Part shown: positions 13,364 to 15,155 of the stretch, in pieces
Position numbering within the stretch: position 1 is the first letter of the stretch
Layout of the letters: each line of letters opens with the position of its first letter
Source: Ignavibacteria bacterium
GTDB lineage: Bacteria > Bacteroidota > Ignavibacteria > Kapaibacteriales > UBA961
Direction of reading: 5' to 3'
NCBI GenBank assembly: GCA_016720145.1
Contig: JADJXV010000024.1
Coordinates: 130,726 to 194,725, forward strand
DNA: 64,000 bases
Program-made: the position numbers and the translations under genes
Notes under the pieces: model-generated
The model's input: the letters and a program-made list of their open reading frames with translations, nothing else
Told to the model about the DNA's origin: nothing
The model's database searches: none

Positions 13364-13861
13364 TTATCCTGCTTTTGGCACTTCCATCGGTCGCTCGCGA
13401 TGAAGCATCACCCAATCTCCGTTTTCTATCAATGCCTCTTTGCCGAGCTCAAGCGTAAGTGATTGTGTAGCTTCCAAATCACCGCTTTTTAGTTTTTGTG
13501 CATAATATTTTTTAGCATTGGCGAATAATGTTCCCATGCGTGTGTATTGGCGAGATTGCTCACTAAAAAGACGTTTTTCTCCATAACCATGAAGTAGTGC
13601 TCCGAATACTTGAACTACACCAATCAACAAGGTCAAATGAGAGAGTGGATTATGGGCAAGTAAAAAATCAAACGATGTCTCAATAGTAGCTAAAGCAAGT
13701 CCGGCAAAAAAAGAAAAAATTACCCCACAGTTTAAGTATTTTGAGTTTGTTGCTATCACGATGTGCGGACTTAATAAAATATGTACATTGGTCATCAATC
13801 CAATGTTTACCAATGAGTTGCATGCGTGTTGCAAGGGAGTCCTTATTCTGAAAGTCTCCAT
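13364..13861 (-). CDS. 2-TM hairpin ORF, probably the out-of-frame continuation of the upstream gene
   Basis: Two hydrophobic helices: IFSFFAGLALATIETSFDFLL and LTLLIGVVQVFGALLHGY. It overlaps the end of the 491-aa ORF by ~180 nt in another frame. Confidence 0.4.
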   Translation of the reverse strand: METFRIRTPLQHACNSLVNIGLMTNVHILLSPHIVIATNSKYLNCGVIFSFFAGLALATIETSFDFLLAHNPLSHLTLLIGVVQVFGALLHGYGEKRLFSEQSRQYTRMGTLFANAKKYYAQKLKSGDLEATQSLTLELGKEALIENGDWVMLHRERPMEVPKAG

Positions 13862-15155
13862 GTGAATATTCTCCGAGCGGAATACTCCACGTTATAACTG
13901 CATCTCGTATCCAATCAAGATCACCCTTTTGCTTGCGCATGTAATGTTCGGCAATGTTGTGATTGATCCCCGCAATCTGCCAGAATAATTGTATCCTCAT
14001 ACCTTCAGCAAGAGCTCTGTAATCTAAATATTTTATTTCAAATTCACCACGATGTGCCCACAAATAACCTGTGTATGCGGCTGATAAACCAATGATATAG
14101 GTAAGAAGAATCCAAGGATTACCTGTAAGAATGTAGCTCCCCACCTGAGCCGAAACAACGATAAATACTAAGACAAACAGCCACATTTGGATAGTAAGTG
14201 TTCGCTTTTGATACAGACCTGCAAGCACATCAGCAGTGGCATATCGGTCGAGATTCATGGAAAGCGATTCGGGCATCGAATCCATGATTTCAGGAGGTAA
14301 TACATACGACTTACTTTTCGGTTTTTCAGCTGATAATGTCGTAGAATGGAGGGCGCAATCTGCGTTAAACCCATCAATTCTTCTAAAGATACGTTGAAAT
14401 TCAGCTTCATTTTGATTATCTGTCTCAGGATAAATCCACGTGGTCGTCAAGCTGTAAATGGGGATCGTCAATGTGCTATTTCGAGGAGTGAGAATGTGAT
14501 ACACCGGTCCGGACTCAACGATATCAAGTGGACTCTGATGCGCATACGCTGAGGGAATTCCATGAATCTTAAATTCCACCACTTGAGCTGTACTGCCAAC
14601 AAGCTTCGAAGGTACACCATCCCAAAGTGCTACTAAAATCTGACAATGCCGTGCGACATAAGCGCCGACAAGAGCATACTGCTCATCTCGGTGTGAACCG
14701 TACTGTTCGACATCACTTTCGAATGTTCCGGCCATAAGTGGCAATTCAAAAACATGCTTAGCTCGCTTAAGAAGAGCGCGAAATTCTCCCAAAGACTCCC
14801 AGCTTTCAAAATCACGTTCGTATAATCTGACCGGCATAGGCAGTGGAACAATAAGTTCAATCCCTGATTCTAACGCAACTTGCGCCGTAATGCGATCTGC
14901 ACCTTCAGCCAGTGGCGAAATAAGCATCAAAGGTGTATGCGAATATTCTTCCTGCATATCGGAAAAGAACTCATGAAGTAAGCGTCTGAGAACGCCTTCA
15001 TCCTCCGCACGCAAATTGCGATGTCCTGTAATACCAATCACTAACGGTAATTGTGTCGTATCTGATTTCATTGTTGCTTTCAATTGTTTTGGTTCACGTT
15101 CCGCAAATTCCAAGCCGTATTTTGCGGACACCCATTGCCGTCCAAACAGATACAA
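13680..15155 (-). CDS. Rossmann-like (SLOG/DprA-LOG-like) domain protein fused to a 2-TM (SLATT-like) module, possibly frameshifted
   Basis: N-terminus VIGITGHRNL...LISPLAEGADRITAQVALESGIELIVPLP. Central 2-TM segment LTIQMWLFVLVFIVVSAQVGSYILTGNPWILLTYIIGLSAAYTGYLWA. The ORF ends inside a tttttt c ttttttt run. Confidence 0.5.
   Translation of the reverse strand: MYLFGRQWVSAKYGLEFAEREPKQLKATMKSDTTQLPLVIGITGHRNLRAEDEGVLRRLLHEFFSDMQEEYSHTPLMLISPLAEGADRITAQVALESGIELIVPLPMPVRLYERDFESWESLGEFRALLKRAKHVFELPLMAGTFESDVEQYGSHRDEQYALVGAYVARHCQILVALWDGVPSKLVGSTAQVVEFKIHGIPSAYAHQSPLDIVESGPVYHILTPRNSTLTIPIYSLTTTWIYPETDNQNEAEFQRIFRRIDGFNADCALHSTTLSAEKPKSKSYVLPPEIMDSMPESLSMNLDRYATADVLAGLYQKRTLTIQMWLFVLVFIVVSAQVGSYILTGNPWILLTYIIGLSAAYTGYLWAHRGEFEIKYLDYRALAEGMRIQLFWQIAGINHNIAEHYMRKQKGDLDWIRDAVITWSIPLGEYSHGDFQNKDSLATRMQLIGKHWIDDQCTYFIKSAHRDSNKLKILKLWGNFFFFCRTCFSYY

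Follow-up and report, generated by a model that had tools for sequence, protein, structure and literature searches.

A frameshifted SLOG-SLATT membrane protein gene in an Ignavibacteria bacterium: an orphan member of a large family often linked to TIR genes

One gene interrupted at a run of T residues

The stretch of DNA analysed here, 64,000 nucleotides from an Ignavibacteria bacterium and hereafter called the window, carries two open reading frames on its reverse strand between serS and a TonB-dependent receptor gene. The first, 13680-15155(-), encodes 491 aa when read from an upstream TTG, whereas the second, 13364-13861(-), encodes 165 aa and opens in the ORF listing with an ATG at 13861. 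Both overlap in different frames, as a preliminary description of the locus had it and as the ORF check confirmed. Removal of one T from a run of seven fuses the two frames into a single coding sequence for a protein of 568 aa, which starts with the ATG at 15069-15071 (Table 1), and not into the product of about 650 aa estimated earlier.

Single proteins of 560-630 aa match this merged protein along 99-100% of its length. It can be aligned end to end with 50 homologues, and its best match, the orthologue P0001 (85% identity), shares both the length of 568 aa and the start position. The preliminary description had used the 491-aa ORF, which begins with the TTG at 15155; judging from the starts of the homologues, translation instead begins with the ATG at 15071, and the upstream extension of the ORF is probably a non-coding 5′ UTR.

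Two overlapping ORFs, the second with an ATG of its own, are mechanically present, and could be read as independent genes whose products, a SLOG-2TM protein and a small 2TM protein, make up a two-component module. However, the homologues are single proteins that span both ORFs: among the best 120 matches to the merged protein, 116 cover 98-100% of the query and measure 561-662 aa, and, of the remaining four, three are shorter and seem to be truncated. In all related loci with their gene inspected (83/83) there is one uninterrupted ORF. Moreover, the first ~50 residues of the second ORF correspond to conserved sequence read out of frame, the break falls within a transmembrane (TM) helix, and residues invariant in the family alignment are found on both sides of the junction. 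The two-gene reading, which the preliminary description had kept as an option, is already refuted by these comparative data and retains a negligible probability, whereas its other option, a single gene split by a homopolymer indel, is borne out by the full-length homologues. The two ORFs are the halves of one gene, and their arrangement is not due to chance.

Table 1. Position of the gene and of its parts in the window
Feature	Coordinates	Strand	Remarks
Whole gene	13364..15071	(-)	568 codons + stop, one extra T; SLOG + SLATT hairpin 1 + SLATT hairpin 2
Upstream ORF extension, TTG at 15155	15072..15155	(-)	homologues including P0001 begin at the position of ATG 15071
SLOG domain, ~aa 8-215	14427..15050	(-)	motifs GxTGHR, AEGADR (GxD), PLP, RDxQY, ALWDG...GGT, TPR
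Helical linker, ~aa 216-288	14208..14426	(-)	conserved FNxD, YAxAD
First TM hairpin, TM1 ~aa 292-312, TM2 ~320-340	14052..14198	(-)	SLATT_3/DUF4231-like; hydropathy, model 268-315/319-342
Cytoplasmic region between hairpins, aa 341-446	13734..14051	(-)	KYLDYRALAEGxRxQxFW, HYxRKQ..ELDWIR, HWxxDQ
T7 homopolymer with one-base insertion	13706..13712	(-)	+ strand A7; frame shifts after codon 455
Second TM hairpin, TM3 ~aa 447-467, TM4 ~477-497	13580..13733	(-)	SLATT_1-like; hydropathy, model 413-470/475-529
C-terminal cytoplasmic helices, aa 498-568	13367..13579	(-)	ELGKEALxENGDWVxLHRERP; readable in the shifted frame alone

Around the junction, the sequence of the gene strand is 'ggt aat ttt ttc ttt ttt tgc cgg'. 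A DNA alignment with two syntenic and intact orthologues, L001 and L002 (77% nucleotide identity), contains one gap in 1,708 columns, which sits precisely at this homopolymer, T7 in the window and T6 in both orthologues. According to hydropathy, the break does not fall between domains, as had been described, but inside TM3. The product as written would retain only a small part of TM3 and neither TM4 nor the conserved C-terminus, and would most likely be inactive; the window copy is probably an inactivated one.

Past the shift, the sequence does not show any sign of decay. All family-invariant residues are retained, and the proportion of nonsynonymous differences from L001 (pN) is 0.079 downstream against 0.090 upstream of the break; therefore, either the shift arose very recently or it is an assembly error. 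The dN/dS ratio is ~0.03-0.05. Since dS between the window and its nearest relatives is saturated (pS 0.70-0.79), no age can be given to the frameshift. If the extra T were an artefact of sequencing or assembly, in an organism with an intact 568-aa gene, this would be in keeping with the undecayed downstream frame, with the intact state of all 83 related loci and with the kind of change itself, since one-base homopolymer indels are a classic error type. On the other hand, 14 A/T runs of at least seven bases lie inside genes of the window and only the one at 13706-13712 breaks a frame; as the other 13 are unbroken, the assembly is not generally prone to indels. No other pair of same-strand ORFs in the 64-kb window meets at a homopolymer either, and recent frameshifts are common in toxic effectors. 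We give the artefact somewhat less than an even chance, and a genuine, very recent inactivating mutation about an even one; a run varying in length within the population is improbable.

A further suggestion of the preliminary description was that the T run could work as an on/off switch by slippage. Such a switch would act either as a phase-variable contingency locus or through programmed +1 ribosomal or transcriptional slippage, and would regulate how a toxic effector is expressed. A U7 run does allow tRNA-Phe to re-pair in the +1 frame and permits low-level polymerase slippage, and the downstream frame is perfectly kept. The split frames are not conserved, however: the closest orthologues have an in-frame T6, and the homologue survey that had been proposed found the same frameshift in none of the 83 related loci. 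The run merely encodes a Phe-Phe pair of TM3 that is not conserved across the family, and seven nucleotides are few for efficient phase variation. The switch is thus left without comparative support and is very unlikely.

A SLOG domain and two SLATT-type hairpins

When the window protein was scanned directly against the profiles of Pfam, NCBIfam and PADLOC, only sub-threshold matches resulted, and a profile search of PDB sequences returned nothing meaningful (occludin and DnaJ alone, with E above 0.2). For this reason, the assignment of the domains required the homologues and a structure model, whose pLDDT is 84.5 and pTM 0.85.

The N-terminal domain is modelled as a Rossmannoid three-layer alpha/beta fold that can be superposed on known SLOG structures. 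Across 51 sequences, G13, T15, G16 and H17 of the GxTGHR motif, together with G57 and D59 of AEGADR, are invariant or nearly so, and His17, Asp59, Arg60, Arg128 and Thr161 are invariant in the family alignment. The YpsA clade of SLOG proteins carries a GxD/E substrate-binding signature (PMC6459960), which the invariant G57-x-D59 fits by motif, as a candidate counterpart of YpsA G53/E55. Curated SLOG profiles are not reached: DprA (PF02481) gives 10.8 bits with the window protein, against a cut-off of 29.6, and among the homologues YAcAr (PF10686) gives 15-18 bits against 28.2, together with one DprA match at 1.4e-4. SLOG membership consequently rests on the fold. The SLOG-like Rossmann domain of the preliminary description holds in terms of modelled structure but not as a match to the curated DprA profile. 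By its modelled fold, the domain is a YpsA/DprA-type SLOG, predicted to be cytoplasmic and to bind nucleotides.

The nearest known structures help to delimit what this domain could do. YpsA of Bacillus subtilis (PDB 2nx2), the founding member of its clade, is soluble and small, has no membrane domain, shares 16% sequence identity with the present domain and has been linked to cell division and oxidative stress. ShosA of the Shosta system (PDB 8zva) and DprA both lack a TM region, and DprA binds ssDNA; the match of the window protein to Shosta ShosA in PADLOC is not significant. In this two-gene system, ShosA is partnered by the product of the second gene, a protein of the phosphoribosyltransferase type. 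A catalytic role for the domain, in which a membrane-tethered LOG-like N-glycosidase or nucleotide-processing enzyme would generate or degrade a signal, would agree with the invariance of His17, Asp59, Arg60, Arg128 and Thr161, and for the YpsA clade either signal generation or sensing has been proposed (PMC6459960). Yet the closest folds, those of YpsA, DprA and ShosA, belong to binders and not to established enzymes, the LOG motif PGGxGTxxE is absent as such (the sequence reads WDG...GGT), and the fusion with SLATT hairpins, which are predicted signal-responsive pore formers, suits a sensor. We regard a catalytic SLOG domain as quite improbable.

The linker that follows is helical in the model (H220-241, H243-257, H260-264 and the start of H268-315) and conserves N236, A280 and D281 in the alignment. 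Hydropathy reveals four hydrophobic helices beyond it, with short uncharged loops and K/R-rich flanks. The first pair, at 11.6-14.9 bits in the window protein, stays below the SLATT_3 and DUF4231 thresholds (16.7 versus 45 for the NCBIfam SLATT_3 model), but homologues pass both, with 32.2 and 27.0 bits for SLATT_3 (cut-off 26.3) and 28.3 and 28.5 bits for DUF4231 (cut-off 24.7). In the second pair, SLATT_1 reaches up to 28.0 bits among homologues (cut-off 26.3), and each of SLATT_3, DUF4231 and SLATT_1 is matched by 14-17 of 51 members at E<=0.01. The region between the hairpins has the invariant residues Y351, R352, L354, A355, E356, R359, W364, Y377, W387, W424 and Q428, and those of the C-terminus (G543, E545, L547, E549, W553, H557 and R558) are all kept in the window. 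Hydropathy and the model thus agree with the two 2-TM, SLATT-like hairpins of the preliminary description, TM1 to TM4, and the thresholds passed by homologues support their type. As modelled, these are two tandem hairpins of the SLATT type, each flanked by conserved cytoplasmic helices.

TIR genes beside the family and around the window copy

The family is very large, with 3,911 clusters at 50% identity (E<=1e-30) spread across many phyla, and has a fixed three-part architecture, in which a YpsA-type SLOG domain is followed by a SLATT_3-like and then by a SLATT_1-like hairpin. Its characteristic partner is a TIR protein. When DUF4062 is counted as TIR-like, 39 of 80 loci have a TIR-like domain no more than 3 kb from the gene according to an iterated TIR HMM, and the number rises to 47 when the whole of the flanks (up to 8 kb) is taken, leaving 33 with none; for ten of the calls made by the HMM only, Pfam matches of 1e-17 to 1e-29 gave confirmation. 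TIR_2 is likewise the top Pfam family of the immediate neighbours (10/72 upstream and 7/70 downstream). The partners comprise short TIR, TIR-TPR, TIR-NB-ARC-TPR, SIR2-TIR and DUF4062-NACHT/nSTAND-TPR proteins, often in an operonic arrangement. Approximately half of the loci examined therefore have the gene adjoining a TIR-domain protein, and the other half have no TIR gene nearby. Single-linkage clustering presented the TIR-TPR and STAND-TPR neighbours as tandem paralogues of the gene, a candidate that we discarded, as Pfam shows them to be unrelated TIR/STAND proteins.

Among the 142 immediate neighbours, SMODS/CD-NTase is not found within the 25 most frequent Pfam families, and the window itself lacks a SMODS or cyclase partner in cis, as already stated in the preliminary description. 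What that description did not foresee, in framing the protein within conflict systems, is the TIR partner of the family; with such a partner, the appropriate paradigm is Thoeris-like and not that of CBASS/SMODS.

In contrast to the linked half of the family, the 64-kb window contains no TIR or DUF4062 ORF, and no TIR was found beside the closest relatives (L001-L008, L010 and L011). The window copy and its relatives in Kapaibacteria and Ignavibacteria form an orphan clade without an adjacent TIR gene. The order serS-X-TonB receptor is common to the window, L001, L002 and L004, whereas L003, L005 and L006 show the order MazG-X-ROK. The surroundings in the window are housekeeping genes, not a defence island, and, with no TIR in 64 kb, a Thoeris-like role of this copy is therefore not demonstrated; that it is a defence gene at all, we infer. 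A promoter and terminator scan was uninformative, with promoter-like sites fewer than in shuffled sequences.

The searches of mobile elements gave a limited return. A phage collection had zero matches, and plasmid records contributed remote matches to the SLOG domain only, such as a stand-alone 159-aa SLOG protein of Streptomyces clavuligerus, with the exception of one relative. This distant relative, on a Caballeronia plasmid, has the full architecture and a TIR neighbour, matches the profile of the family in hhalign with a probability of 99.7% over 450 columns, and is named 'DUF4231 domain-containing protein' in RefSeq.

Loci with and without a linked TIR gene conserve the key residues of the ligand site and of SLATT to the same degree. 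Because these residues are identical in both, the alignment suggests that linked and unlinked members may share one ligand class.

Function of the family and of its orphan members

Taking these observations together, we favour, with moderate confidence, that the family consists of SLOG-4TM membrane effectors of a TIR-linked, Thoeris-like defence, of which the window copy is an orphan and frameshifted member. Under the same explanation, held with the same confidence, the product of the intact gene, which is chromosomal, would be an inner-membrane protein of 568 aa made up of a SLOG domain, a helical linker and two SLATT hairpins. Its architecture, a sensor-type SLOG domain joined to two SLATT membrane hairpins, is that of an effector, with the roles of sensor and killer assigned by architecture. 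A TIR enzyme triggered by infection would produce a signal derived from ADP-ribose, the SLOG domain would bind it, and the protein would then change conformation or oligomerise, so that the SLATT hairpins could permeabilise the membrane and abort the infection.

Several known systems come close to this proposal. Effectors described as 'SLOG and 4TM' were found beside TIR genes in putative Thoeris systems (Yirmiya et al. 2025, Tables S1 and S2; 10.64898/2025.12.03.692087). They correspond to IMG genes 2862473379 and 2691454910, and the two operons, from Streptomyces sp. GKU 895 and Ca. Nitrospira nitrosa, did not confer phage defence in E. coli (10.64898/2025.12.03.692087). The present family resembles this class in having SLOG and four TM helices within one protein and a TIR gene adjacent (39 of 80 loci), and fits it as compared by architecture and context alone; the window copy differs in its frameshift and in having no TIR neighbour. 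BLAST of the published TIR domains against the family loci gave no significant match for the two 4TM-SLOG TIRs, and a database search aimed at the Nitrospira locus through its TIR domain recovered only TIR relatives of 55-64%, with one usable contig, which lacked a SLOG neighbour.

Within Thoeris, the effector of type VII, ThsH, is a TM protein annotated as SLATT only that works with a signalling TIR, responds to the canonical cADPR made by the TIR, and is predicted to oligomerise and breach the membrane. The protein described here, by comparison, also contains a SLOG domain of the YpsA type, and its tandem hairpins are of two kinds, SLATT_3-like and SLATT_1-like. ThsA of type I (SIR2-SLOG) binds 3'cADPR through its SLOG domain, but it acts through a soluble SIR2 NADase as output domain, and its STALD-type SLOG is further removed than those of YpsA and DprA; ThsD of type III has a DprA-type SLOG. 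SLATT effectors linked to SMODS/CD-NTase (the CBASS 2TM/4TM effectors), reportedly predicted by Burroughs et al. in 2015, likewise use SLATT hairpins as nucleotide-responsive membrane effectors, although the partner in the present family is a TIR protein.

Outside immunity, TRPM2-type channels are alike in outline, in that a membrane permeation module is joined to a cytoplasmic domain resembling SLOG, and the SLOG-like N-terminal domain of TRPM2 binds ADPR. Their TM module is unrelated, a tetrameric channel of 6 TM helices instead of two 2-TM hairpins, and the structural matches to TRPM have probabilities of 0.1-0.35 and a very high rmsd. The likeness is an analogy, and not family membership.

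In a different reading, the family, or at least its orphan clade, would be a non-immune, housekeeping nucleotide-gated membrane channel or sensor. Its SLOG domain would sense an endogenous metabolite (ADP-ribose, a derivative of NAD or a nucleotide resembling cytokinin, for example) and gate an ion flux, in functional analogy to the gating of TRPM2 by ADPR. The conserved position among housekeeping genes within sub-clades (serS-X-TonB receptor and MazG-X-ROK), the strong purifying selection, the 33 of 80 loci without a TIR gene in their flanks, the lack of matches in the phage collection and the remote, SLOG-only ones in plasmid records, the lack of a defence island in the window and the appearance of TRPM channels among the weak whole-architecture matches would all agree with it. 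Against it, no neighbour recurs across phyla other than a TIR or STAND-type immune sensor, linked and unlinked members have the same ligand-site and SLATT residues, the established contexts of SLATT are conflict systems, and tolerance of a frameshift is not expected in a housekeeping channel. We find this reading rather unlikely. Also unlikely is the narrower possibility that the Kapaibacteria/Ignavibacteria clade represents a stably inherited, TIR-independent and self-contained SLOG-4TM channel among housekeeping genes, gated by a nucleotide or an ADP-ribose derivative; such a channel would sense in trans signals coming from elsewhere in the genome or from phages, or would have a physiological role like that of TRPM2.

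SLOG-SLATT fusions had already been predicted by comparative genomics as membrane effectors responsive to nucleotide signals, and the gene is a new member of this large class, predicted computationally and as yet unproven. Being an orphan and broken or mis-assembled, the window copy is ill suited as a starting point for experiments and, taken alone, is of limited interest. What the present analysis adds concerns the family: its very large size and fixed SLOG/SLATT_3-like/SLATT_1-like architecture, the wide range of linked TIR sensors, including the TIR-NB-ARC-TPR arrangement of plant TNL receptors, and the presence of sizeable orphan clades with no change in the residues of the ligand site. 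The family offers material for asking which of the TIR products a SLOG domain of the YpsA type reads, and whether SLATT hairpins arranged in tandem make a pore. If the TIR-independent reading of the orphan clade were true, the combination of SLOG with two SLATT hairpins would be a general bacterial device for ligand-gated permeation, reaching beyond an immune effector bound to its operon.

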